A DNA stretch of 64,000 nt from an uncultured archaeon (GTDB lineage: Archaea; Asgardarchaeota; Hermodarchaeia; Hermodarchaeales; Hermodarchaeaceae). Positions 29,394-63,771 of the stretch are shown one piece after another. The notes below the pieces were generated by a model, which ran no database searches, was not told where the DNA came from, and saw nothing but the letters and a program-made list of their open reading frames with translations. A program made the translations under genes and the position numbers. Where the stretch lies: contig CAYFXC010000003.1 in the NCBI GenBank assembly GCA_964347045.1, positions 38,701 through 102,700 of the forward strand, read 5' to 3'. How positions within the stretch are numbered: the first letter of the stretch is position 1; every line of letters starts with the position of its first letter.

Positions 29394-29854
29394 TGTCCCA
29401 AACCAAATCATTAACAGTTGACCTCGAAAGGGAAGCGCATGTATGGCACCTTCTCTTTACTCAGTTTGGAATTCCCAAACTTGTTGGTTACAGGCTTTTA
29501 AAATCTGGACGAAAACGCATTCGACTTATCAGTACCGCTGCCTTCAACCTTCTATCCGAACTACCATATACTGGATCAACTGGACTTTATATTGGCGAAT
29601 ACTCACCGAACGCTTTTCGGTTGTCAATGGACGGAGCCCATCTTCTTGGCCCTCATGCTGTGAAGCAAAGAGTCGAGTTAAATGATGAGCAAGCAGAAGC
29701 TTGGCTTCAAGGGGAATCGATTAATTATGAAGACAAACAAAGAGGATATGTAATCGTTGTCCACAATAACACCATCCTAGGCTGTGGAAGCCTCTCTCAG
29801 GGTACACTCCGTAGCTTTATACCCAAGATTCGACGACCTAAACACAAACGCTAA
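29393..29854 (+). CDS. PUA-like partner of the m5C methyltransferase (NIP7/RsmF C-terminal-like)
   Basis: GLYIG...FRLSMDGA.LLG, WLQGE, GYVIV....LGCG, FIPK.RR; overlaps the upstream stop by one base. Confidence 0.75.
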   Translation: MSQTKSLTVDLEREAHVWHLLFTQFGIPKLVGYRLLKSGRKRIRLISTAAFNLLSELPYTGSTGLYIGEYSPNAFRLSMDGAHLLGPHAVKQRVELNDEQAEAWLQGESINYEDKQRGYVIVVHNNTILGCGSLSQGTLRSFIPKIRRPKHKR

Positions 29855-29873
29855 CATCCTGGTGGAGAACAAA

Positions 29874-31247
29874 GTGTCTGTGACCATTACCATTTATGGA
29901 GGCGCAGGAGAAATCGGCGCCAATAAGATCCTAATCGAAGATCAAGGGCATGATGTGAAGTTCTTTCTTGATTTTGGAAAATCCTTTGAAACAATGCGCG
30001 AGTTCTATGATTTTCCTGTTTCCCCTCGTTCCCTTGAAGAATTAATACAAGTTGGTGCAACTCCCGACATTCCCAATTTATATTATCAGCCTTCCGAAAA
30101 CGATTACCCCTCCACCGACATCGATGCGGTAATTTTATCCCATGCACATACGGATCACAGTGGATATCTTCCTCTACTTAATCGGAGCATTCCTATCTAC
30201 ATGGGCGAATGTACACGTATCATCTTTGAAGCCCGATTAGAAGGAGCACGAAAAGCTTTCGACACTGATATCGAAGGACAAACAATATCGACTTTTCAAA
30301 CTGGAGCGCGTATTAAGATTGGAGACGTGGAAGTTCAACCAGTACATGTGGACCACAGTATTCCTGCAGCCTATGGGTTTATCATCCATTGTTCCGAAGC
30401 TACCCTTGTATACACAGGTGACTTTAGACGTCATGGAACGCTTCCTCAACTAACTGAGAATTTTGTACAAGCTATTCAGACTACAGGACCTCCAGATGTT
30501 GTTCTTAGTGAGGGTACAAATATGGCCAAGGCTGAACTAGCGACTGAACAGGAAGTCCTCCAAAAAGCGTCTACAATCATTGGTGGGTGTAAAGGTCTAA
30601 CAATCGCAGATTTCTCTGAACCCGATTTTGATCGCTTTCGAACCATGCAATCCGCCGCTGAAGCAAACGATCGTGAACTGGTGGTTGAGCCGCGAAGATT
30701 CTGGATACTTCACGCGATTAATCAATGCCGAGGCCTCAAAAAACCAAGCATTGCACGAAAAACGGCAATCCGCTGGTTTGATGGTGAGAAAAAACGGGTA
30801 TCTAAATACGAAAAATTGCTCCAAGAGGCTGATCCTCCCATTAAAGACTTTACTGATCGCGGTGTCACAGCGAAGGCGCTTCATAAACATCCTACACGGT
30901 ATGTATTCTGCAGCAGCTTTGGTAGCATTAGTACCATCCAGAAAATCAAACCACCTGAATCTGGTATATATCTTCTCAGTGCTTCAGAGCCCTTTAATGA
31001 AGAAAGTGAAATTAGTTTTGATAAGCTTCTCAATTGGCTCGCTTTATCTGGACTTGCAATGTATTCTGCCCATTGCTCAGGACATATTCATCCACTGCAA
31101 CTCTGTCAGACACTTGAAGAAATGCAACCCAAACAAGTGGTGCCCATTCATACCGAATCGCCTCAACTCTTTCAGAAGTTCATGAAATCCACCGGAATTC
31201 CTATTCAAATTCCTAAAAAGGCTATTCCCTTGAAATTCTCTTCCTGA
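29874..31247 (+). CDS. MBL-fold/beta-CASP ribonuclease (RNase J-like)
   Basis: GGAGEIGAN, HAHTDH, DHSIP, YTGDFR, SEGTN, HCSGH, PIHTE. Confidence 0.88.
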   Translation: MSVTITIYGGAGEIGANKILIEDQGHDVKFFLDFGKSFETMREFYDFPVSPRSLEELIQVGATPDIPNLYYQPSENDYPSTDIDAVILSHAHTDHSGYLPLLNRSIPIYMGECTRIIFEARLEGARKAFDTDIEGQTISTFQTGARIKIGDVEVQPVHVDHSIPAAYGFIIHCSEATLVYTGDFRRHGTLPQLTENFVQAIQTTGPPDVVLSEGTNMAKAELATEQEVLQKASTIIGGCKGLTIADFSEPDFDRFRTMQSAAEANDRELVVEPRRFWILHAINQCRGLKKPSIARKTAIRWFDGEKKRVSKYEKLLQEADPPIKDFTDRGVTAKALHKHPTRYVFCSSFGSISTIQKIKPPESGIYLLSASEPFNEESEISFDKLLNWLALSGLAMYSAHCSGHIHPLQLCQTLEEMQPKQVVPIHTESPQLFQKFMKSTGIPIQIPKKAIPLKFSS

Positions 31248-31318
31248 AACCAATTTTGAACAGATTTCTCTTATACCCGAAATAGATTTTAGCAGGTTCA
31301 CAGGAACCGTGCTTTATT

Positions 31319-32599
31319 ATGTCCTTTCTAAGAGGCGTTCTTAGCGGAGATCCTGCAAAATCAGCTGCGAAACATGAGAAACGGGCTAGAATGCATCAAG
31401 CCGAAGGTAATGAATCAAAAGCTGCCGATGAATGGGCTGCCGCAGGACGCGATTACATAAAGATTCCCGATTATCAACATGCTTATGACGCCTTTTTACA
31501 AGCAGCACAATTTTATCTTGCTGTTAAGGATGATAAGCGAGAGAATGCAATTCTTTTTGATGCCGTGGATGCGGCTATTACAAACCAAGATTTCACAGCA
31601 GCATCAGGGGCTTTAAACCAGGTAACCCGCATAGGTACTAGAAAAAATGATGATGCACTACTGATTCGAGCTTACTCTCTCCAAACCATTCTGTTATTTG
31701 CTGCTAATGATTTAGCGAAATCGAAGCAGACTCATCGTGAGGCAGAAAAAATCGAGAAACGCTTAGGTCAGAAAAAAATTAAAACAGCTCTTTTTCCCAT
31801 TGCATCCCTCCTCGTTAACCGTTTTATTGAAGGAGAGGTTGTTCCTAAGGATATTCAACTCCCCGCCCGTGTTGACGAGTCAGAAACAGTAAATCAATTA
31901 ATTACAGATCTCCTCTCACTCTATCAAGATACACAATCTGCAACTCTAAAATTAAAACTGGACAAAGAAGAAGTCAAAATCAAAGAGCGCGTCTCTGGAC
32001 GCGTTACAATCTCCTTTTCAGCCCCGGCACAAATTATTGACACTCAGATTTCACTTCCCTCAAATATTGCACTGCTGGAAACATTGACCATTCCCCTTGG
32101 ATCAAAGAAGAAATTCAAGATTCCATTCTCACTGGAACCCCGGTTACCAGGCACCTTTGATGTCGGGCCACTGACAATCCTTTTTCAAATAGATCATCAG
32201 CAATTTCAATTTAGATCCAATCTATCCCAATTGAAAATCACTGCTGCCAAACCTCGAATTAACCTGGTCGCAAAACCGGTCATTTCTCCTCATTCTCAAG
32301 AGGAATTCGAGCTTTCTCTACGTGTTGAAAACACCAGCCATGGCGATGCCTCTGATTTAGCTATCAATATAAGCCTACCACCTACTCTTCTTCTCAAAAC
32401 TGGGACACTAGAAAAACGTATACTCGCTCTTCCTGCCCAACAGCATGTCCAATTCCCCCTATTCCTTATTGCTACCAAAGCAGGCACTCATGAAGGCGTA
32501 ATGACGTGTATATTCCAAGGTCCAAGTGGACGAAGCCAAAAAATAGAGAATAAGTTTTCAGTAGAAATTTTACCCCGGGTCCGAAAGGAAAAAGATTAA
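31319..32599 (+). CDS. Soluble protein with an alpha-SNAP/TPR-like N-terminal solenoid and two C-terminal Ig-like domains
   Basis: Helical N-half (AADEWAAAG..Y....AYDAFLQAAQFY); beta C-half (PRLPGTFDVGPLTI, LRVENTSHGDA); no signal peptide or TM helix. Confidence 0.65.
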   Translation: MSFLRGVLSGDPAKSAAKHEKRARMHQAEGNESKAADEWAAAGRDYIKIPDYQHAYDAFLQAAQFYLAVKDDKRENAILFDAVDAAITNQDFTAASGALNQVTRIGTRKNDDALLIRAYSLQTILLFAANDLAKSKQTHREAEKIEKRLGQKKIKTALFPIASLLVNRFIEGEVVPKDIQLPARVDESETVNQLITDLLSLYQDTQSATLKLKLDKEEVKIKERVSGRVTISFSAPAQIIDTQISLPSNIALLETLTIPLGSKKKFKIPFSLEPRLPGTFDVGPLTILFQIDHQQFQFRSNLSQLKITAAKPRINLVAKPVISPHSQEEFELSLRVENTSHGDASDLAINISLPPTLLLKTGTLEKRILALPAQQHVQFPLFLIATKAGTHEGVMTCIFQGPSGRSQKIENKFSVEILPRVRKEKD

Positions 32600-32644
32600 T
32601 GAACTGCCTTAGCCGCTGTCAACTATGAATAGGGGTTAACAACT

Positions 32645-33943
32645 ATGCGAGCACTTCTTCTAGCAGGCGGTGAAGGCAAACGCATGTGGCCACTTGTTGA
32701 TACATGCCCTAAACCACTAATCGATATCGGTGGTAAACCAGTCATAGAGTGGATAATTAAAGATATGCGTGCAGCAGGAATTCGTGACATCGTCGTATCC
32801 CTCGGATATCGCGGGGAGCAGATTCGCGATTTTCTAGGACAGGGTCACAAATTCGGTGTAAAAATTGAATATGTAGTTCAGAAAGAACCTCGAAGTGTCA
32901 CAGATTCTATTCTTGTCGCGAGAGAAGAATTACAGGGTGAAGATGCATTTTTCATCGTCAACGCGGATATCCTGGGCGAACCTACAATGTTTCGGCGTGC
33001 CCAACGACATTTCAAAGATCTTGGTGCCGAAGTTGTCATCAGCCTCACTTTAACAAACAATCCTCAGTTCTATGGAATTGCAGAAATTAACGAACGTGCT
33101 CGAATCAAACGTTTGGTCGAAAAGCCTCAACCTTCTGAAATCCAAAGTCGCTATGCAGTCGCGGGGATTTACGTGGTTCAGTCTAATATATTCAATTTGC
33201 TCGAAAATACAAAGGATTTGACCACCACCTTTCAACAGCTTATTGATAAGAGGAAAGAGGTCTATGGTTCCGTTTGGGAACGAGATTGGGTGGAAATATC
33301 TTACCCCTGGGATCTCATTCGTGCCAATCGGTTCGTTCTCGATAAAGTGTTAACAGGTAAAGGGTCTTTTATCGCCTCATCTGCTGATGTACAACAGCCC
33401 AGTAGAATCGAAGGTTCCGTTCACATCTCTGAAGGCGTTGTAATTCGTCCCCATTCAACAATACGAGGACCCACCTATATTGGTCCTAACACCTACATTG
33501 GAAATAATGTACTAGTTCGAGAATACACCGCTTTAGGCTCCAATGTCTTAGTGGGGTTTGGTGTTGAAATCAAAGAAAGTCTCATCTTTGATGAAACCAA
33601 AATTGGCCGCTTATGTTTTGTGGGTGACAGTGTAGTGGGACGTAACGTGGATATTGGGGCAGGCGCACAGCTTGTTAATCGTCCGGTTGCTGGAGAATCA
33701 ATTTCATCTGTCATAAAAGGTAAATCAGAAGTTGTACCTCGAGTGAAATACGGCGCGGTGATTGGAGATAATGCCATCCTGAGTCCCAATGTTTCCATAT
33801 ATCCTGGAGTGAAGGTTGGAACTAATTCTATTGTGCTACCTGGCACCATTCTTTCAGGGGATATTCCTGCTGACACAGAAGCAAAAACTACTCACAAAGT
33901 TGCATTTCGTGCTTTAGGTCAAAGAAAAGAGAAAAAGACTTAA
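32645..33943 (+). CDS. GlmU-like sugar-phosphate nucleotidyltransferase with left-handed beta-helix
   Basis: LAGGEGKRMWPL...PKPL, VEKP, C-terminal hexapeptide repeats. Confidence 0.9.
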   Translation: MRALLLAGGEGKRMWPLVDTCPKPLIDIGGKPVIEWIIKDMRAAGIRDIVVSLGYRGEQIRDFLGQGHKFGVKIEYVVQKEPRSVTDSILVAREELQGEDAFFIVNADILGEPTMFRRAQRHFKDLGAEVVISLTLTNNPQFYGIAEINERARIKRLVEKPQPSEIQSRYAVAGIYVVQSNIFNLLENTKDLTTTFQQLIDKRKEVYGSVWERDWVEISYPWDLIRANRFVLDKVLTGKGSFIASSADVQQPSRIEGSVHISEGVVIRPHSTIRGPTYIGPNTYIGNNVLVREYTALGSNVLVGFGVEIKESLIFDETKIGRLCFVGDSVVGRNVDIGAGAQLVNRPVAGESISSVIKGKSEVVPRVKYGAVIGDNAILSPNVSIYPGVKVGTNSIVLPGTILSGDIPADTEAKTTHKVAFRALGQRKEKKT

Positions 33944-33980
33944 AGGCTTTTAGGATGTCCGTCCCAAACGGTGATTCGGA

Positions 33981-34211
33981 GTGGCTGTAGTTCTTGCCTA
34001 TGTCCTTATCTTAGCAAAATCCGGACGCGAATTTGATATAATCGAGAGCCTAAAAGAATTCAAGCAAGTCAAAGAGGCACGAACCACGTTAGGTTCATGG
34101 GACATCATTGCCGCTGTGGAATCTGATTCCATGGAAGATCTCTATGTGCTTGTAGAACGAATACGAGCCCTTAGAAACGTCGAACGTACATCTACCCTCA
34201 TTACGAGATAA
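33981..34211 (+). CDS. Stand-alone Lrp/AsnC ligand-binding (RAM) domain protein
   Basis: AYVLI....G, G.WDIIA.VE, IRAL.NV.RTSTLI. Confidence 0.88.
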   Translation: MAVVLAYVLILAKSGREFDIIESLKEFKQVKEARTTLGSWDIIAAVESDSMEDLYVLVERIRALRNVERTSTLITR

Positions 34212-34334
34212 TTAAGCCGCCTCCCGTTCTTTATTTCCAACCAGCCCATTTTTATCATCACATTCCTCAGGAACTAATTAACAAAAGAGTGCCTTTTTGG
34301 GGCTTCTTCCTTCCCCCTGACGAGGTAGAATTTC

Positions 34335-35375
34335 ATGACTGATGCATTTCCACCTTCAACAGAAGAATTCGATACAATTGAGGAACGGGCGGGAGATGCG
34401 AAATTCTTCCTAACTCTTGGAAGTGGAACCTTCTTAATCTTAGGCGCTCTCCTACTTCTACCTCATCTCGCCAATTATTTTGGTTTAATTCTCCTTCCTC
34501 CAAATGTAGCCCTTGCTTCGCTCATGGCTGGATTAGGTTATCTCCTTCCCGGATTTGTTCTATTCGCCTGGGGTTTAGGAAAAATCTTTCGTGGAAAGGA
34601 TCTGACTTTTCAGCAAGTTTGGCAAGCCCGAGTGCAAATTGGGGATGTCAAGCGAACCCTTCGCTTCCTCGTCTTTGTTACATTCTTTATCATCCTGCTT
34701 GTAGTTCCCGTGCTCATCGGGCTGTCTATCCTTGACATTATGAATGCCATCATTATGTGGGCACTTACTGTCTTTGGACCATTAGGAATTTATGTCGGAG
34801 TTTTCATTATTAGTATCTTTGGTAATTTCACTGTCATTTTTCCCGTTCCTTACTTGTTTATTATTCTCTTAATTGCCCTCCAACCAGGATTCACACTGTT
34901 AGATGCTCTGCTGCTTGGCATAGTGGCTGGCGCCGGAGCAGCTATTGGAGAAACAGTTGCCTGGCTACTCGGGCGTAGTCAGAGCGGATCCTTGGAAGAA
35001 TCACCTACTGGGCAAAAGATTTTAAAAATCCGTGGACAAATCGAACGCGGCTATGGGGGGCTATTGATCTTCATCTATGCTGCAACACCACTACCTGATG
35101 ACATCCTCCTCATCGCTCTTGGGGCAACGAAATATCCGCTATGGAAAGCTCTCGTTTTTTGTTTCTTCGGAAAAGTTGCACTTGCATTATTAATTACTTT
35201 GGGAGCGCAGTTACCCTTTCTACAACCCATTTTGTTCCAAATTTTTGGAGGAGGTTCAGATCCTCTCATGGATACCCTCTATCTCATTCTCGGTATCGCT
35301 TTGATTGGTCTATTCTTTTTACCATGGGGAACCCTGCTAAGGAAGATTCGTGGCACATCAGAGGAGACGAAATAA
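34335..35375 (+). CDS. VTT/DedA superfamily membrane protein with extra N-terminal TM helices
   Basis: GNFTVIFPVPY, GAAIGETVAWLLGR, AATPLPDD motifs. Confidence 0.85.
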   Translation: MTDAFPPSTEEFDTIEERAGDAKFFLTLGSGTFLILGALLLLPHLANYFGLILLPPNVALASLMAGLGYLLPGFVLFAWGLGKIFRGKDLTFQQVWQARVQIGDVKRTLRFLVFVTFFIILLVVPVLIGLSILDIMNAIIMWALTVFGPLGIYVGVFIISIFGNFTVIFPVPYLFIILLIALQPGFTLLDALLLGIVAGAGAAIGETVAWLLGRSQSGSLEESPTGQKILKIRGQIERGYGGLLIFIYAATPLPDDILLIALGATKYPLWKALVFCFFGKVALALLITLGAQLPFLQPILFQIFGGGSDPLMDTLYLILGIALIGLFFLPWGTLLRKIRGTSEETK

Positions 35376-36023
35376 ATAGATTCGCTCTAATAAGCCAAAA
35401 ATACGGCCCTTAGCAATGATCTGAATTTTGAAGCCGACATTTTTTGTAAGTGAAATTATCCGTGGCAATAAAGCAGCGGAACTTAGCAGCATCTGGATTT
35501 CACCGTTTTTGGCTAGCACTTGTCGTGCATTGCTAAGAAACTGATCAAATAGCTCGTACTTAGAACCAGCACACCATCCTTTTGCCATCCAGCTTTGAGC
35601 ATCAAACCGGAAATAAGGGGGGTTGAATAAGATGATATCAAATGTTTCGTCCTTTACTGGAGAGAATAAATCACCTAAAAGGACTCTAACTCGGCTCTCA
35701 ATTCCATTTAGTCGCAAAGTAGCTTGGGCACATTGAACCGCTAAGGGACTGATATCCGTTGCTGTCACAGGTTGTGTTATCTGTGCCGCCGCGGCTGCGA
35801 TGGCTCCTGACCCAGTGCCAATTTCAAGCACCCGTCTTCTAGGTTTTAATTTCATGTGTCGAATAAAAAAGGAGGTTGTTTGACCCAAAATCGGGTTGAA
35901 CACTTGGGGGCAAATCTGTACGCGAAGTCCGTTAATCATTGTTACTTTTTCATAATGTACTCGACGATGGAAGAGTTCCAATAACCATGCGATTAGCCTT
36001 GGATATTGTGATTGGGCTAACAT
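35358..36023 (-). CDS. HemK/PrmC-like class I SAM methyltransferase
   Basis: LEIGTGSG, DISP, GDLF, FNPPY. Confidence 0.88.
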   Translation of the reverse strand: MLAQSQYPRLIAWLLELFHRRVHYEKVTMINGLRVQICPQVFNPILGQTTSFFIRHMKLKPRRRVLEIGTGSGAIAAAAAQITQPVTATDISPLAVQCAQATLRLNGIESRVRVLLGDLFSPVKDETFDIILFNPPYFRFDAQSWMAKGWCAGSKYELFDQFLSNARQVLAKNGEIQMLLSSAALLPRIISLTKNVGFKIQIIAKGRIFGLLERIYLFRLL

Positions 36024-36152
36024 GATTAGATATCCTTCTTTTGTTTCATTCACAAGAGCATAATTGTTTAGTTTTCCCCTAAAACAACTAGGAGCTGATA
36101 TGCTACCCCACAAGGTTTTAAACTATTCAATCTAAGGTGACACTGATGCAGA

Positions 36153-36617
36153 ATGGCGCTCGGCGGATTTGACTTCTTAGCAGCTGAAAAAGACACCTCT
36201 AAGAAAATTGAGGAACTTGCGCAAGTTCTTGAAAGGGTGGCAACCATTTTTCTCAACGGCGTTGGCTCACTTGAAAAACAAATAGATGATTTGCGAAATC
36301 GGTTATCTATAATTGAAACACAAGTTGATACAGTTCTTCGTATGGGTGGACCCAAAGGAGCACCAACAGTTACCGCCGCCACCAGTGTAGGAGAACCGCC
36401 TAAAGCCGGACCAACTCCTAGTCCTGGAATGCCGCCTTCACAAGCTAGTCCCGGTTCTTCTCCAGGTCTGGCAGCACCTCCTCAAGCGCCAACATCACCG
36501 ATGGGTGCTGCGGCCTCCGGCGGGCTAGGAATTCGTGCTCAAATGCAAGGTGAACTTCAATCATTTCTTGCTCGACGCCGTGCGGCGCTTGAATCCATGA
36601 TGGAAAATGAAGAATAG
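36153..36617 (+). CDS. Small protein: coiled coil, proline-rich linker, basic C-terminal helix
   Basis: Heptad segment FLNGVGSLEKQIDDLRNRLSIIETQV; Pro-rich centre; MQGELQSFLARRRAA; GGTGA RBS. Confidence 0.8.
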   Translation: MALGGFDFLAAEKDTSKKIEELAQVLERVATIFLNGVGSLEKQIDDLRNRLSIIETQVDTVLRMGGPKGAPTVTAATSVGEPPKAGPTPSPGMPPSQASPGSSPGLAAPPQAPTSPMGAAASGGLGIRAQMQGELQSFLARRRAALESMMENEE

Positions 36618-36629
36618 CAGCGTCTTGCC

Positions 36630-37250
36630 CTATTCATTTTTAAAGAATTGGCTTAAATCCTGTTGACCTTTCTGTGGTTCGGAATTTAATTTTTCACGAG
36701 TATTAAGCAGGCGTTTTAGTTTTTGCATATCTGCTTCCATCTCTGGGGTTAGATTTTGATTATACAATCCTGCCGCAGGGTGATACATTACAAAATAGGT
36801 GCGTCCTCCGCGTTTGAAGGTTTTTCCATGCATGGTTCCCATTCTTACAGTTGTTTCAAGAATGGTTTCTGTTGGAACTCGACCGACCAACGCAATAACT
36901 CGAGGTTTTATAAAATCTAATTGGCGTAAAAGGAATGGAAAACAGGCTTTTCGTTCATCAGCGAATGGTTGTCGATTTTCTGGAGGACGACACTTTACGA
37001 TGTTTGTGATGAAAACCATCGCTCTCGGGATTCCGGCTTCTTCTAGCAATTTGGTAAGTAATTTTCCTGCCGCTCCAACAAACGGCTCACCTTGAAGATC
37101 CTCTTGTCTTCCTGGTGCCTCGCCGATTATAACTAATTGGGCTTCTTGAGGCCCAACTCCCGGCACTGCTTGTGTCCGGGATTTCGAAAGTATACATTTA
37201 CGACATTCTAATATCTCGTGTCGTAGAAGGATCCATTGGTCTGAACTCAT
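36630..37250 (-). CDS. udg: Family 4 uracil-DNA glycosylase (Fe-S)
   Basis: CxxC, GEAPG..ED..G.PFVG, KCRPPENR, YHPAA. Confidence 0.93.
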   Translation of the reverse strand: MSSDQWILLRHEILECRKCILSKSRTQAVPGVGPQEAQLVIIGEAPGRQEDLQGEPFVGAAGKLLTKLLEEAGIPRAMVFITNIVKCRPPENRQPFADERKACFPFLLRQLDFIKPRVIALVGRVPTETILETTVRMGTMHGKTFKRGGRTYFVMYHPAAGLYNQNLTPEMEADMQKLKRLLNTREKLNSEPQKGQQDLSQFFKNE

Positions 37251-37307
37251 CGTCTCACCACTTACCAAGCATCAACAGGGTGGAGAGGGTACATCTTCCT
37301 CTTAATG

Positions 37308-38156
37308 CTATTCGGTTGGGGTTGTTGCACGAACTCGTCGTCGCTTGCGGAATGCATAGAAGAGAACTAAGCCTAGAAAAATCCCTGCAGGTAAAATGAT
37401 GGTTACAATCTTGTTAACCAATGATGTATCAACAGGAATGGTAATGACTTGACTACTGATGAATTCGTCAAAATAATACATTGAAACGTTTGCAGGGAAC
37501 ATACCGAAATCATATACGTGAGTAACATTAGGCATTAGTGGAATTGCTACTGTATTCGATCCAGGTAGAATTTCGACTTCTTGTGAAGAGTTTACAAATT
37601 TTGATCCAAATACTTCAATACGAACTGATTTTATCTCGTTGACGCGATTTTCAATTGAGACCAAAAGGAGTCCTATTTGGTTCTGTGAAAAGACGCTTCC
37701 AGGCACAACATTTGTGATGCTTGCAACAGGAATCACAGTGATCGGGTATTGCTCGTATAAGAACGAGAAATCACCAACACTAATCTCAAAGGTAGCAATG
37801 TGAACTCCCAAAGTAGCGGTCTCATTTACTTTGTACTCAACGACGACAGTCATTGACTCTTCAGGTCCGATTGTGAAGTTCACAAGTTCTATGAGTGGAT
37901 TAATTGGGCTTTGGCTTCGGATTTCGCCTATTTGGTCAGAAAACCGTGCCCACCCATCAAGTGAGATATTTAACAAGTTATGGACGGTTGCTTGTACTTG
38001 CCCACTTGATGCTTGAGGTATTTCATAGGGGACTTGAACATCGGTGATTTGGATATTCGGTTGAGCCGCAACCGGTGTGTAGGCGGGTAAACCCAGAATT
38101 GAGGCGATGAACAACGTTGCAATCAAAAGGGTACAAATGCGAAGTGAGAGTTTCAC
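37308..38156 (-). CDS. Secreted beta-rich protein with C-terminal membrane anchor
   Basis: Signal peptide, N-glycosylation sequons, C-terminal TM helix followed by RKRRR. Confidence 0.75.
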   Translation of the reverse strand: MKLSLRICTLLIATLFIASILGLPAYTPVAAQPNIQITDVQVPYEIPQASSGQVQATVHNLLNISLDGWARFSDQIGEIRSQSPINPLIELVNFTIGPEESMTVVVEYKVNETATLGVHIATFEISVGDFSFLYEQYPITVIPVASITNVVPGSVFSQNQIGLLLVSIENRVNEIKSVRIEVFGSKFVNSSQEVEILPGSNTVAIPLMPNVTHVYDFGMFPANVSMYYFDEFISSQVITIPVDTSLVNKIVTIILPAGIFLGLVLFYAFRKRRRVRATTPTE

Positions 38157-38305
38157 TAGTTAGCCACCTTGTTGTTTACTGGTCTTGGGGTTCAGAGCCA
38201 ATGTCTAATGTGTCTTTTAAAGTCTTTCTGCCTAGGACGGAACGAAAATCTTCTCCCTCCTTAGACATGCTCGAAGGCAGTTCTCCAAGTAACTAATTCG
38301 GCATG

Positions 38306-38349
38306 TTTAAATAAAGCAGTATTACTGCTTTGCCGGACTATATATAGTC
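38306..38349 (+). promoter_or_regulatory. padR-cdc48 promoter with two palindromic operator candidates
   Basis: TATA TTTAAATA 38306-38313; AAAGCAGTA-T-TACTGCTTT 38313-38331; perfect palindrome GACTATATATAGTC 38336-38349. Confidence 0.7.
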
Positions 38350-38375
38350 ACACGATATATTCGGAGTAGAGTTGA

Positions 38376-38798
38376 ATGACTGAAGCACCTACCGACAAAA
38401 CAAATGATAAGATTCGAGAATGGTCTCGTGAAATCAATCGTGGCATTCTTGAGTTCTGGGTACTCACCTTATTGCGGCAAGAAAGCCTTTATGGAGCGCG
38501 TATCAGCGCTCTTATCGATGACATGTCGGCAGGGCACATTCAAATGGAACCCGGAACCATCTATCCCTTACTCAATCGTCTTGCAGAAAAAGGGTGGATT
38601 GTTGGCAACACCAAAATCCACAGTGAAGGTCGAGGGCCCTTGCGTCGGTACTATCGGTTAACCAAAGATGGTGATCAATTACTCCAAGCAATGATCGACC
38701 ATTACTTTGATACATGTGAAGCCCTCTTCCAATTAATGGCATCTGAGTTCCAGTCTGTCCGTAAACGCTTATCTTCAATAACGGAGGAAATTGATTAA
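38376..38798 (+). CDS. PadR family transcriptional regulator
   Basis: RGILE..VL.LL, YG..I, GTIYPLLNRL..KGWI, RRYYRLT..G. Confidence 0.92.
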   Translation: MTEAPTDKTNDKIREWSREINRGILEFWVLTLLRQESLYGARISALIDDMSAGHIQMEPGTIYPLLNRLAEKGWIVGNTKIHSEGRGPLRRYYRLTKDGDQLLQAMIDHYFDTCEALFQLMASEFQSVRKRLSSITEEID

Positions 38799-41051
38799 AT
38801 GTCAGCAAAAATTCAACTTCGTGTAGTCTCTCTTCCAAGCGATGAAGCTGGACGTGGAATTGTCCGTGTTGACCCCAAGGTCATGGAACGCCTTGGCGTG
38901 ACGTCGGGGGACATAGTTGAGATTACAGGAAAAAAGAATACTGGTGCTCGCGTTTGGCGTGGTCAATCCATTCATGCGGGTTCAGGAAAAATCTTCATGG
39001 ATGGTCTGGTCCGAAGCAACGCTGGTACTGGGATTGGAGAATTTGTCGAAGTCAAACGAATTGATCCATCACCTGCTAAAGGAGTCGAACTTGCACCTGC
39101 ACAACGAGGTGTTCGAATTGTCGCGGAAGGCGATGCCGTAAAACCGAGCTTAAATCAACGACCAGTTGCTCAAGGTGATATTGTTAGTACTGCGGGATCA
39201 GGCACCATTCGGAGTGGCGATTATTCAGTTTTCGAAGCTATGATGCGTGGTGCAGGAGCACCCTTTGCCCTTGGAGAAATCAAGTTCGTGGTTACTAAAA
39301 CCACTCCTAAAGGCATTGTTAAGATTACCGAAGATACGGTTATTCAGATTCAACCCGAAGCCGTCGATATTACTGTAAAAGCTCCCATTGTCACCTACGA
39401 AGATATTGGAGGGCTTGATGAGGCTATTGACCGCGTTCGCGAGATGATTGAACTTCCTTTGAAACACCCGGTGCTCTTTGATCGATTGGGAATTGATCCA
39501 CCAAAAGGAGTCCTACTATTCGGACCACCTGGTACGGGTAAAACTCTTCTAGCACGTGCTGTAGCCAATGAATCTGATGCAACATTCATTTCCATTAATG
39601 GTCCTGAAATTATGAGTAAATTTTATGGCGAATCTGAAAAACGCCTACGGGAACTATTTGATAAAGCATCTGAACGTGCTCCTAGCATCATCTTCATTGA
39701 TGAAATCGACAGCATTGCTCCTAAACGTGAAGAAGTACAAGGGGAAGTAGAACGTCGTGTTGTAGCCCAGCTCCTTGCACTCATGGATGGTCTTCAAGCC
39801 CGAGGCCGAGTCATCGTCATTGCGGCCACTAACCGCCAAGATGCATTAGATCCAGCGTTACGTCGCCCCGGTCGCTTTGACCGCGAAATTGAAATCCCAG
39901 TACCAACACGCACGGGACGCAAGGAAATTCTTCTTATCCACACACGTGGTATGCCCTTAGCTAAAGATGTGAATCTAGATACACTTGCTGATTCCACACA
40001 TGGAATGGTAGGCGCTGATTTGGCTGCAATTGCCCGTGAAGCGGCAATGAATACGTTGCGCCGGATTCTTCCACGAATCAATTTGGATGAGGATCAACCT
40101 CTTCCATCAGATATTATTGAAAGTCTTGAAGTCACAGGTGAAGATTTTGACGAATCATTACGACGTGCAGAACCTTCTGCTCTTCGCGAAGTGTATCTAG
40201 AAATCCCCAAAGTATCATGGGAGGACGTGGGAGGACTAAAAGAAGTAGAAGATGAATTACGCGAAGCTGTTGAGTGGCCTCTAAAATACCCTGCTAAATT
40301 TGAAAAAGTCGGGGTTCAACCACCTAAAGGAATTCTTCTCGTTGGACCACCTGGTGGTGGAAAGACATTACTAGCAAAGGCTGTTGCCACCGAAAGTGAA
40401 GCCAACTTCATTGCCATCCGAGGACCTGAGATTTTCAGCAAATGGGTGGGAGAATCTGAGAAAGGAATTCGGAAAATCTTTCGCAAAGCACGACAAGTTG
40501 CGCCTAGTATAATCTTCTTTGACGAGCTTGATAGCCTTGCTCCCGCAAGAGGTCAATGGCAAGGAAGCCACGTCTATGAATCCGTTCTTAATCAACTCCT
40601 TGCAGAGATGGATGGAATGGAAGAGCTCAAAAACGTCGTTGTAATTGGTGCCACCAATCGACCTGAAATCATTGATAAGGCACTCCTCCGCCCTGGACGC
40701 TTTGACCGAATCATCATGGTCCCAGCACCAGACATGGAAGCTCGGATAGAAATTCTCAAGGTTCATACACGAAAAATGCCCATCGATGACGATGTAGACC
40801 TTATAAAAATCGCTAAGGAAACCGAAGGCTACTCTGGTGCTGATATCGCAAACCTTATCCGTGAAGCTGGCATGTACGCAATTCGAAACGAAGAAAAACT
40901 GACTACTGTCAATGCCAAGCACTTTGAAGCAGCTAGGGCTAAAATCAAACCCAGCATCACTCCTGAAATGCTCAAAGCCTACAAAGATTACATCGACGTG
41001 ATGTCCACAAAACGTGATGCTATCGACACCACGCCTGGTCCTTATACCTAA
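38799..41051 (+). CDS. cdc48: CDC48/VCP AAA+ ATPase
   Basis: N domain, two AAA modules ([16 protein letters not shown]; RPGRFDR twice), C-terminal PYT resembling HbYX. Confidence 0.96.
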
Positions 41052-41062
41052 AAACTTAAACA

Positions 41063-41098
41063 TCCGGCTCTCCCTGAGCCGGAAATCCCTTTCTTTTC
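41063..41098 (+). terminator. Hairpin plus pyrimidine tract after cdc48
   Basis: TCCGGCTC-tccct-GAGCCGGA followed by CCCTTTCTTTTC. Confidence 0.6.
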
Positions 41099-41211
41099 AT
41101 CAAAATGGCGCTTGCCAGCCCTATAAAAGGTTTATAAGGGCAATGGCTACGTTATAAACAGTCTTTAAAAAGTTTATAAAGCACACTCCGCCGGTCTGGG
41201 AGGTATTCATC

Positions 41212-41763
41212 TTGCCAAAGAGACCTAAATACAAAATAGAAAATGTAGTTGCAAGCGTCGAAGTCGACGCAAAAATTGATCTCAATCTTCTTGCCCGTAA
41301 ACAGCGGGATGCTGAATATAACCCCGAACAGTTTCCTGGGTTGATGCTCCGTGTGAAAAATCCAAAGGCTACTATTCTCGTCTTTAATAGCGGACGGATG
41401 GTCATCACAGGATTACGACGAGAGAGCGAAGCAGAGAAGGCCGTCGAAAACGTGATTGCCAAGATACGGAAAGCAGGGATCACAGTCTCCGGTAAACCCA
41501 AAATTACTATCCAAAATATCGTCGCTTCAGGTGATTTACACAGCCGCGTGGATCTCGATATGGCACAGATGGCCCTAGAACGCTGTTTGTATGAACCCGA
41601 AGTCTTCCCGGGGCTTATCTACAGAATGAAGACTCCTAAAGCCGTTTTCCTAATCTTTAGTAGTGGAAGGATTGTTTGCGCTGGTACAAACAAAGAGACA
41701 ATCACCCGCAAAGCAATCTATCTTTTAGCAGATCACATGCGTGATCTTGGGCTAATCGAATAA
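41212..41763 (+). CDS. tbp: TATA-box binding protein
   Basis: Two TBP repeats: IENVVAS...YNPEQFPGL...FNSGRMVITG and IQNIVAS...YEPEVFPGL...FSSGRIVCAG. Confidence 0.97.
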   Translation: MPKRPKYKIENVVASVEVDAKIDLNLLARKQRDAEYNPEQFPGLMLRVKNPKATILVFNSGRMVITGLRRESEAEKAVENVIAKIRKAGITVSGKPKITIQNIVASGDLHSRVDLDMAQMALERCLYEPEVFPGLIYRMKTPKAVFLIFSSGRIVCAGTNKETITRKAIYLLADHMRDLGLIE

Positions 41764-41796
41764 ATTGGAAGCCACTTTTTGGATCAAAAATATGGG

Positions 41797-42855
41797 TCAT
41801 TCGTAAAGCTGACCAAGGGACTGTACACATTCTACTACTAATTGAACCGTTGATTCCAAATCTGAAAACTGAATCATCGAGTTCGTCGTATGGAAATAAC
41901 GTGTCGGCACAAGCAAAGCCGTTGTTTTACTGCCGGCTTTTGCTATTTCAACGGCTGCGGCATCAGTGCCAAAATGAACGGGCGCACGTAATGCGACCTC
42001 CTGCAATGGTATTCGATGCTTCTCAGCGATTTTAGCAATCCATGTATTCATCGTCTGAGAGGTCACATGATATTGATCCGCTTTCAACAAGGTGGGTCCT
42101 TGACCCAGCTTAACAGGAATCAGACCCGGTTTAATGTCAGGATGATCCTCTGTTGGTGACACATCAAAGGCGATTCCAAAGTCTGGTTCAACCCTGAATG
42201 CCACAGATTTCGCTCCACGAGTTCCCAGTTCTTCTTGAACCGAAGCTACACCCACTACTTGCATTGCCAACTTCTCATTTTGGATTCGGCGAAAGGTTTC
42301 TATCATGGCCACCAGCCCTACCCGATTATCAAAACAGTTACCGAGAAATCGACCATTTGCGAGTTCAATAAAATGTTTCTCTGCTGTAACATACTGCCCA
42401 ATTTCAAATCCCATTGATTGCGCGTCATCAAAACTGTCTGCCCCACAATCAATGAACATTTGATCAAATTCCGGTCGATAACCCTGTTGTAATTCTTTCA
42501 TCGGAATAATGTGTGGGGCGACCAGGCCCACAACACCAGGTTTTTTCCCTTGATTTCCATGGACGATTACCCGTTGCCCAAGAATGTTCCATCGGTGACC
42601 GACAAGTCGAGTAAACCGAAGGTATCCGTTATTGTCAATGTGAGTCAAAAGGAGTGCCCAATCTTCATCTTGATGGGCAATCAGCATCAATGATTTTGCT
42701 TCCCTTCCATGTCGATTTACAATCACATTACCAAGGGCATCAACACGAAGTTCATCAACATAGGGTTCTAACTCTCGAGTGACAATCTGCCGAACTTCAT
42801 TTTCACGACCTGGAGGCGCATCAGCAAGAACTAACTCATGTAACAAATCACGCAT
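41797..42855 (-). CDS. M42 (TET-type) aminopeptidase
   Basis: D.LGN, AHQDE, FDNRVG, VQEELG.RGA, GTDA, TRYFH. Confidence 0.92.
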   Translation of the reverse strand: MRDLLHELVLADAPPGRENEVRQIVTRELEPYVDELRVDALGNVIVNRHGREAKSLMLIAHQDEDWALLLTHIDNNGYLRFTRLVGHRWNILGQRVIVHGNQGKKPGVVGLVAPHIIPMKELQQGYRPEFDQMFIDCGADSFDDAQSMGFEIGQYVTAEKHFIELANGRFLGNCFDNRVGLVAMIETFRRIQNEKLAMQVVGVASVQEELGTRGAKSVAFRVEPDFGIAFDVSPTEDHPDIKPGLIPVKLGQGPTLLKADQYHVTSQTMNTWIAKIAEKHRIPLQEVALRAPVHFGTDAAAVEIAKAGSKTTALLVPTRYFHTTNSMIQFSDLESTVQLVVECVQSLGQLYE

Positions 42856-62658: not shown

Positions 62659-63771
62659 ATGGTTGATGAGCGCATTTCTCGGCTAGCTCAACTTACTGTT
62701 GAATATTCTCTCGACGTCAAAAAGGGTGATTTGGTTGGTGTCAGTGCACCCGCATTCGCTGAGCCTCTGGTCGTTGAATTAACCAGAGAAATCATGAAAG
62801 CTGGAGGGCATCCTTTTACTCGTATTTATCTTCCGCGTTCTCAAGAAATCTTCTACAGATATGCCCAAGACCACCAACTCGACTATCTTAACCCACTCCT
62901 TCTTGACATGGTTGATAAGCTTGACAACTACATCGTCATCTTCTCATCTGATAACCGGAAAGCCATGACTAATGTGGATCCAGCTAAACAAGCTCGTGTT
63001 GCCAAAGCGCAAACTGAACTCAATAAAAGATTCACAGCTCGACTTAAACAGGGTTGGTATGCTCTAATCCCTTATCCTTCAGCAAGCCTCGCGCAAGAAG
63101 GCAACATGGGAACTGAAGAATACGAAGATTTTGTTTATAGTGCTTGTCTAGTTGACAAACCCAACCCTGTCAAACTCTGGAAACAAATTAGTAACAAACA
63201 AGCGAAAATTACGGCGTATCTGAATTCAAAAAATATCCTCCGTGTTATAGGCGACGATATCGACTTGACAGCGAAAATCACTGGCCGAAACTGGGTCAAT
63301 GCAGACGGACACATGAATATGCCTGATGGCGAGATTTTTACAACGCCTCTTGAAGACAGTGTTGAGGGAACGATTCGCTTTTCCTATCCTGGTATCTTTA
63401 TGGGTAAGGAAGTTGAAGATATCTCATTAACTTTTAAGAAAGGCGTGGTAGCAAAAGCTACTGCTGAAAAAGGGCAAGATCTCCTTAATCATATTCTTGG
63501 GATTGACGAAGGTGCAAAGCGATTAGGAGAGTTCGCGATCGGAACGAATCCTGGTATAACGAAATTTACAAAAAACATATTGTTTGACGAGAAACTAACG
63601 GGAACCATTCACTGTGCTCTCGGAAACGCATTCGAAGAAAGTGGAGGGAAAAACGAATCAGCGATACACTGGGATATTCTCGCGGATATGTCTAAGGGAG
63701 GAAAAATCTTCGCAGATGATGAACTATTCTATAAGAATGGCAAGTTTTTGATGAAAGTAATTGATCAATGA
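62659..63771 (+). CDS. M29 (AmpS/AmpT) aminopeptidase
   Basis: NMPDGEIFT, LGEFAIG, ILFDEK..GTIH.ALG, SAIHWD. Confidence 0.93.
   Translation: MVDERISRLAQLTVEYSLDVKKGDLVGVSAPAFAEPLVVELTREIMKAGGHPFTRIYLPRSQEIFYRYAQDHQLDYLNPLLLDMVDKLDNYIVIFSSDNRKAMTNVDPAKQARVAKAQTELNKRFTARLKQGWYALIPYPSASLAQEGNMGTEEYEDFVYSACLVDKPNPVKLWKQISNKQAKITAYLNSKNILRVIGDDIDLTAKITGRNWVNADGHMNMPDGEIFTTPLEDSVEGTIRFSYPGIFMGKEVEDISLTFKKGVVAKATAEKGQDLLNHILGIDEGAKRLGEFAIGTNPGITKFTKNILFDEKLTGTIHCALGNAFEESGGKNESAIHWDILADMSKGGKIFADDELFYKNGKFLMKVIDQ

Follow-up and report, generated by a model that had tools for sequence, protein, structure and literature searches.

Formins, Ena/VASP proteins, and WASP-type factors drive filament growth in eukaryotes, and the hydrophobic cleft of actin is a known landing site for terminal helices. 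The published accounts of actin regulation in Asgard archaea that were consulted name only profilins and gelsolins as regulators, and the WH2-like motifs reported in these archaea lie within gelsolins; formins, Ena/VASP, and WASP-type factors are absent from those accounts. Ena/VASP proteins combine a proline-rich region with an EVH2 region that holds GAB, an F-actin-binding site (FAB; residues 259-278 in human VASP), and a tetramerizing coil (PMC10340426). Among archaea, arcadin-2 of Pyrobaculum calidifontis (PDB 5LY3) has a short C-terminal helix as its only actin-binding element, which occupies the hydrophobic groove of crenactin (PMC5173319). We present here a small gene with a comparable layout, found in a 64,000-nucleotide stretch of DNA (the window) from an uncultured archaeon of the family Hermodarchaeaceae. 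A full-text literature search returned no description of such a stand-alone Asgard protein.

The gene is genuine and belongs to an unnamed, Asgard-wide protein family. Its open reading frame (ORF) translates into 154 amino acids (P0001; Table 1), identical to the translation quoted in the earlier note, and is under coding selection: 65 homologues with 47 to 84% identity retain the frame, the start, and both helices. A minus-strand ORF that overlaps it (36068..36382) has no comparable homologue support. The gene is flanked by a divergent methyltransferase gene (35358..36113, minus strand) and by a convergent gene for a family-4 uracil-DNA glycosylase (UDG; 36630..37268, minus strand). Two short elements within 36116..36140 may be its own expression signals.

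Table 1. Features of the gene, its product, and its recurrent upstream neighbor (positions in the window)
Feature	Position	Strand	Basis or remark
VTT/DedA-family membrane-protein gene	34335..35375	+	Upstream neighbor on the same strand; recurrent in four Asgard families
Possible TATA-like, A/T-rich element TTTTAAAC	36116-36123	+	About 30 nt 5' of the ATG; putative
AAGGTGA, possible expression signal	36134-36140	+	Putative, from the sequence
CDS, 154 aa (P0001)	36153..36617	+	Member of the unnamed pan-Asgard family
N-terminal long helix, residues 6-64, heptad coiled coil	36168..36344	+	AlphaFold2; heptads read off the sequence
Disordered Pro/Ser/Ala-rich linker, residues about 65-124	36345..36524	+	AlphaFold2, alignment, composition
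C-terminal helix, residues 125-153	36525..36611	+	AlphaFold2, alignments
Conserved docking core, residues 127-IRAQMQGELQSFLARRRAAL-146	36531-36590	+	Alignments across lineages
Short acidic end, ESMMENEE	36591..36614	+	Read from the sequence

AlphaFold2, run with a 29-sequence alignment, modeled both helices with a pLDDT of about 90 and residues 65-123 without structure (pLDDT 41-44); the model contains no transmembrane segment. Together with the ORF translation, it bears out the three-part architecture that the earlier note had described. The N-terminal helix is a coiled coil, as judged from a clean heptad pattern (a positions A23, A30, V37, I44, L51, and V58; d positions I19, L26, F33, L40, L47, I54, and V61) and from the 7-residue insertions and deletions by which the helices of relatives differ while keeping the heptad register. 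Over residues 19-34, hydrophobic side chains occupy more than one face, and the invariant motifs FLNGxG..LE and ETQ sit in this helix. The best PDB profile matches of the coil are mostly trimeric coiled coils, and it probably serves as an oligomerization or anchoring module. The linker is 25% proline; among relatives its sequence varies while its proline content and length (about 40 to 90 residues) are kept. The acidic end takes the form of poly-D, poly-E, or K-x-W-D-[DE]-E in other lineages. At the extreme N terminus (residues 1-16, 36153-36200) there is also an acidic-aromatic motif, GFDFL, replaced elsewhere by EEFxxFL, DDFSEIL, or EDFVRLI. Its general form, [DE][DE]-F-x-x-[LIFM], resembles that of Atg8-interacting LIR motifs, and it is possibly a second short docking motif.

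Conservation across Asgard genomes, one of the checks proposed at the outset, was found: of 301 Asgard genomes searched with the family profile, 205 contain a full-length relative, as do 73 of the 90 high-quality ones. A word-indexed search had returned the 65 homologues, which are 86 to 165 amino acids long; those with a taxon name are labeled Promethearchaeota or Thorarchaeota, and those with an annotation are called hypothetical. Within the Thor-type set, the N-terminal segment GFDF..EKD..KKIEELA.VLERVATIFLNGVGSLE and the C-terminal segment A.M.GEL..FLARRR..L are invariant or nearly so, and the linker varies. Searches with phmmer and with profiles added distant members from Odinarchaeota, Hodarchaeota, and other groups, with the same three parts. 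Against 1.8 billion representative sequences, phmmer gave nine matches, the clearest of which are Asgard proteins of like layout; none is a eukaryotic VASP, WAVE, BRK1, or CCDC53. The family is unannotated, with no Pfam or NCBIfam model: neither database gave anything above threshold for the 154-residue protein, and the NCBIfam search returned only noise.

Forty loci from about 19 family-level lineages (designated f1, f2, and so on) were compared. Nearly all encode a protein of 104 to 240 amino acids with the coil, a proline-rich linker of 38 to 88 residues, and the end helix; lineage f4 has long forms of 300 to 360 amino acids, and one match in f25 (L103), which has no end helix and is overlapped by an opposite-strand ORF, was excluded. 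P94, E134, and L135 are the sole positions without variation over 27 lineages. The conserved core reads [S/N]-h-R-x-x-h-x-x-E-L-K-x-[LA]-F-x-K-x-[KR], and an acidic end often comes after it. No part of the family is better conserved than the helix core E-L-K-x-[LA]-F-x-K-x-[KR]. All 29 sequences of alignment A3 have R at position 143, and most lineages outside that alignment have K or R there. The earlier note had staked its reading on conservation of the LARRR helix; the helix is indeed conserved across the phylum, but LARRR itself is restricted to Thor-type members. In this genome the end-helix motif is unique (36.8 bits versus 10.1 for the next match), and a search with the helix only matched 58 of 121 genomes, as a rule through one small ORF per genome. 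Since it is conserved across the phylum, we take the C-terminal helix to be a functional docking element, and its invariant polar residues (E134), low amphipathicity, and single copy per genome suggest that it behaves as a short linear docking motif.

Several variants of the family were recorded. The f4 long forms (L094:7890-8786, plus strand; L096:7485-8423, minus strand; and L095:7317-8402, minus strand) each contain the end helix twice, as ALNMEVKDALAKRASR and EALQGELRDAFSSLLESD. They alone carry extra GLKKINPDE-like motifs, in which a helix is followed by an LKK-like run (DIQGIRAGLTKVDPDE and IQNARAGLKKINPDE); these look WH2-like by eye and gave no match to Pfam WH2. The Lokiarchaeum-type (f21) members at L118:1000-1611 (plus strand) and L123:1501-2208 (minus strand) end in ...ELKEAFSRIRKGWDEEK or ...ELRAAFARIKKNWDDED, a succession of helix, basic residues, and a Trp in an acidic tail that recalls the C-A end of WASP-family proteins. 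One f28 genome has two tandem, abutting family genes on the same strand (L070:7597-8432), encoding 130 and 147 amino acids. A search for longer fused forms of the family found none, which is weak evidence, and none of 14 gelsolin matches in five genomes carries the family end helix or a fusion. The only other weak match to the N-terminal coil model of the family in this genome (E 1e-4) is an ORF at C8:62189-62740 (plus strand, 184 amino acids). This ORF and another coiled-coil ORF with a proline-rich start (62756-63229, minus strand, 158 amino acids) adjoin two divergent actin-family genes at 63627-64652 and 64762-65790 (Pfam Actin, 112-115 bits), and the region C8:62189-65790, outside the window, possibly represents a cluster of actin-related genes that has accessory proteins of its own.

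The protein had been likened to three eukaryotic actin regulators. The VASP segment quoted in that comparison was correctly labeled as F-actin binding (PMC10340426), but the resemblance of the C-terminal segment to it does not rise above chance. The VASP FAB peptide scored 4.9 bits against a hidden Markov model of the family C-terminal helix and 0.6 bits after removal of the Thor-type and f6 rows, in which alone an ARR(R/K) run occurs; in a background of six-frame ORFs from this genome (1.8 million residues), at least 10 chance matches outscored it, at more than 5 bits. Seven of 16 residues (E, L-A-R-R-R, and A) are common to the FAB and the Thor-type helix, and the f6 members read GGLMGELKSLLAARRKK at the compared positions. 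Given these scores and this background, the VASP likeness is a feature of one subfamily that is indistinguishable from chance. No VASP chain was among the matches listed for a profile search of the PDB with the C-terminal helix, which were integrin alpha-IIb (E 0.03), the N terminus of twinfilin-2 (E 0.3), and weaker ones.

The N-terminal coil, whose FLN...E...L..R...IET pattern recalls the helices of BRK1 and CCDC53, fared no better as a homologue of either. Pfam CCDC53 (PF10152) matched 4 of 29 members below the cutoff (best E 0.011) and did not match the 154-residue protein itself, and when the PDB was searched with profiles of the Thor-type and the pan-Asgard alignment, neither BRK1 nor WASHC3 was among the matches listed. 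Those listed (GCN4-pII fusions, trimeric autotransporter stalks, reovirus sigma-1, and hemagglutinin HA2) are generic, mostly trimeric coiled coils. The weak Pfam matches over the 29 members likewise all belong to coiled-coil families: P10 (15 members), FlaC (13), CLZ (9), CCDC53 (4), and HSBP1 (3). WH2 (PF02205) was absent from the Pfam results for the 154-residue protein and five relatives (E up to 10) and for the 29 aligned members (E up to 1). The helix of the 154-residue protein runs directly into LARRR with no LKKT/V after it, and throughout the family the end helix continues into F-x-K-x-[KR] without an LKK[TV]-type motif. VASP_tetra (PF08776) was matched by a single relative (E 0.11) and not by the 154-residue protein, and Pfam EVH1 had no match in the family members searched. 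Thus the profile searches proposed against CCDC53, WH2, and EVH2 produced no match above threshold, and BRK1 was not among the PDB matches listed. Since none of the testable features of membership was found, the family is best described as perhaps working like WH2, EVH2, BRK1, CCDC53, MIM1, or P10 proteins and not as a member of any of these groups.

The suggestion that the protein might be ancestral to parts of WAVE, WASH, or VASP therefore has no detectable homology behind it; the likeness is an analogy of layout. In both the Asgard family and Ena/VASP, an oligomerizing coiled coil is combined with a flexible proline-rich region and a short basic helix. The coil, however, is C-terminal in VASP and N-terminal in the Asgard family, the family core E-L-K-x-L-F differs from the VASP core, and, unlike Ena/VASP, the family has no EVH1, GAB (KLRK), or VASP_tetra match. 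The order of parts in WAVE and WASH is matched by the family: an N-terminal bundle-forming coil, a proline-rich region, an amphipathic basic helix, and an acidic end, which includes a Trp in Lokiarchaeum-type members. The layout fits WAVE and WASH better than VASP, with its C-terminal coil.

On present evidence we tentatively favor an oligomeric hub that presents docking helices on flexible arms, with actin as the most likely partner; this reading falls clearly short of an even chance. The N-terminal coil would form a homo-oligomer, probably a trimer, or anchor the protein, and each proline-rich arm of about 60 residues would present one docking helix to a very conserved cytoplasmic partner through a face formed by M131, L135, and F138-L139 with E134 and the basic cluster R141-R143. 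Such a partner is expected from the near-invariance of the docking helix. Asgard actin could be gripped in its hydrophobic cleft, as crenactin is by arcadin-2 and eukaryotic actin is by WH2, FAB, or C-type helices; a particle with several such helices could then gather or bundle filaments or supply monomers to them, and true polyproline tracts, where a lineage has them, might let the arms recruit profilin-actin as well. We consider actin the single most likely partner of the docking helix, at roughly a third of the total likelihood, on four grounds: Asgard actins are 74 to 84% identical across the phylum, the actin cleft receives terminal helices, Loki-type members have genuine polyproline runs (up to eight Pro, flanked by Gly), and Lokiarchaeum-type members end in a helix, basic residues, and then W-D-E-E. 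This genome encodes an actin, a profilin candidate, and two 2-domain gelsolins. Arcadin-2, the sole precedent in archaea for such a mechanism, has no detectable sequence similarity to the family; its 5LY3 peptide has 17 residues, and the PDB sequence set begins at 20. Arcadin-2 is a depolymerizer and sequesterer for which no multivalent coil or proline-rich arm was read, and its gene lies in the crenactin gene cluster, whereas the family gene has no adjacent actin in 40 loci. In those loci the 8 kb on either side of the family gene include no gene for actin, profilin, or gelsolin; on contigs that have both, actin lies at least 49 kb from the family gene, and in this genome actin is on contig 30 and the window on contig 3. 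Also against actin, neither Pfam nor PDB profile searches linked the family to any actin-binding family, the Loki and Odin profilins are reported not to bind polyproline (PMC8410842), and short basic amphipathic helices suit many classes of motif. The more specific proposal of a phylum-wide Asgard actin-assembly or bundling factor on the WAVE/WASH/VASP plan (a coil for oligomerization, a proline-rich arm that recruits profilin, a helix for the actin cleft, and an acidic tail) we regard as doubtful.

The gene neighborhoods give no pointer to actin; the recurrent neighbors are membrane and ESCRT genes, so that partners of these two kinds have a neighborhood support that actin lacks. The C-terminal helix might be MIM-like, with the Vps4 MIT domain or the CDC48 N domain as its docking site; the coil would then bring the protein to a membrane or to an ESCRT-III assembly, and the proline-rich arm would be a spacer of the type found before MIMs. 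An ESCRT cluster (Vps4 with MIT, Vps25, and two Snf7 genes) lies 4 to 10 kb from the family gene in f2, f12, f14, and f20. CDC48 lies downstream at 0.7 kb on the same strand in f26 and at 2.2 kb in the window and in Thor-type relatives. Both the family and the MIM1 proteins of ESCRT-III (CHMP1, CHMP2, IST1, and Asgard Snf7) have, after a Pro-containing spacer, an amphipathic helix at the terminus whose last residues are hydrophobic-[KR]. In 12 of about 16 lineages the family helix reads L-x-x-x-[FL]-x-x-[hydrophobic]-[KR], with residues spaced as at the end of MIM1 and at Asgard Snf7 C termini such as SELEKEIEKMK. However, the ESCRT linkage is loose, with unrelated metabolic genes intervening; f12 has a different arrangement from f2, f14, and f20, which may share a single ancestral one and so are not independent cases. 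Vps4 is far off or on another contig in f1, f4, f7, f9, f15, f18, and f28, and in this genome the Vps4 and ESCRT-III genes are on contig 8 and the window on contig 3. Asgard Snf7 C termini score about 0 bits on the family helix model, Pfam finds no Snf7 domain in the family, and the MIM1 pattern (D/E)xxLxxRLxxL(K/R) fits the family helix only at L135, L139, and R143, the Arg position being hydrophobic in the family and the last hydrophobic position being Arg in f1, f6, f9, and f23. Docking on an ESCRT or AAA-ATPase component is accordingly graded as improbable. Alternatively, the protein might be a membrane-linked scaffold whose coil or end helix touches the neighboring VTT/DedA-type protein or the membrane surface, the two acting together in lipid or membrane homeostasis. 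In f2, f18, and f20 the family gene is immediately preceded on its strand by a VTT gene, with gaps of about 100 to 500 bp, and a UbiA prenyltransferase gene flanks the pair; in f1, including the window, the VTT gene is also upstream, with a methyltransferase gene (in the window 35358-36113, minus strand) inserted. The VTT proteins at these loci are 39 to 45% identical, and same-orientation adjacency across deeply separated families is a usual sign of functional coupling. The pair is missing, though, in f4, f6, f7, f9, f12, f14, f15, and f23. The end helix seeks membranes poorly, with a hydrophobic moment of 0.13 and a mean hydrophobicity of -0.34 here and a moment of 0.04 to 0.24 in f9 and f23; the 154-residue protein lacks a transmembrane segment, and its invariant Glu and Lys favor a protein interface. 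This low amphipathicity disfavors simple membrane insertion, and a membrane-targeting amphipathic helix was ruled out by the same moment. We judge the scaffold, too, quite unlikely.

Another conserved partner, such as PCNA bound through a PIP-like Q-x-x-L-x-x-F-L, or a self-assembling fiber like that of baculovirus P10, is an unlikely explanation. The stretch Q132-G-E-L-Q-S-F-L139, followed by basic residues, fits a PIP-box pattern, and the convergent neighbor in the window is the UDG gene. Yet no more than about half of the lineages have the Q of the pattern, PIP boxes are not characterized by the invariant E and K, and the UDG neighbor is limited to Thor-type loci. P10 has the order coil, proline-rich region, and basic C terminus, which parallels that of the family. 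It is the commonest weak Pfam match (NPV_P10; 15 of 29 members, best E 0.0013) and, as PF05531, the best match of the 154-residue protein, but at 15.8 bits (E 0.02) against a cutoff of 29.8 the match is below threshold and covers the coiled coil only; P10 is a viral protein, and common descent with the family is not plausible. The PIP box and the VCP-binding motifs VIM and VBM were rejected, their pattern positions not being conserved across the family.

In the window, the family gene lies in a syntenic block (29784-42855) that is kept in Thor-type relatives whose family protein is down to 47% identical. The order is MBL-fold hydrolase, SNAP-like/Ig protein, NTP-transferase, AsnC, VTT, and methyltransferase up to the family gene and UDG, membrane protein, PadR-CDC48, and TBP after it; synteny among Thor-type genomes says little at that evolutionary distance. 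In f9, the family gene is followed on its strand, after 0.2 to 0.6 kb, by the gene for a conserved protein of about 580 amino acids with no Pfam match (L059:8619-10373, and at the same position in L072, L073, and L074). An Elf1 zinc-ribbon gene lies near the family gene in f9 and f23.

With actin as the tentatively preferred partner, the family is an obvious candidate for the missing filament-growth activity of Asgard archaea, being small, single-copy, and phylum-wide, with a near-invariant end helix. If that reading is true, multivalent actin polymerases that combine polyproline with a helix would predate eukaryotes. If the partner is instead Vps4/ESCRT or a VTT protein, the family would be a new accessory of the membrane-remodeling machinery that eukaryotes took over from archaea. 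In both cases, the closest archaeal relatives of eukaryotes have here a protein family without annotation.
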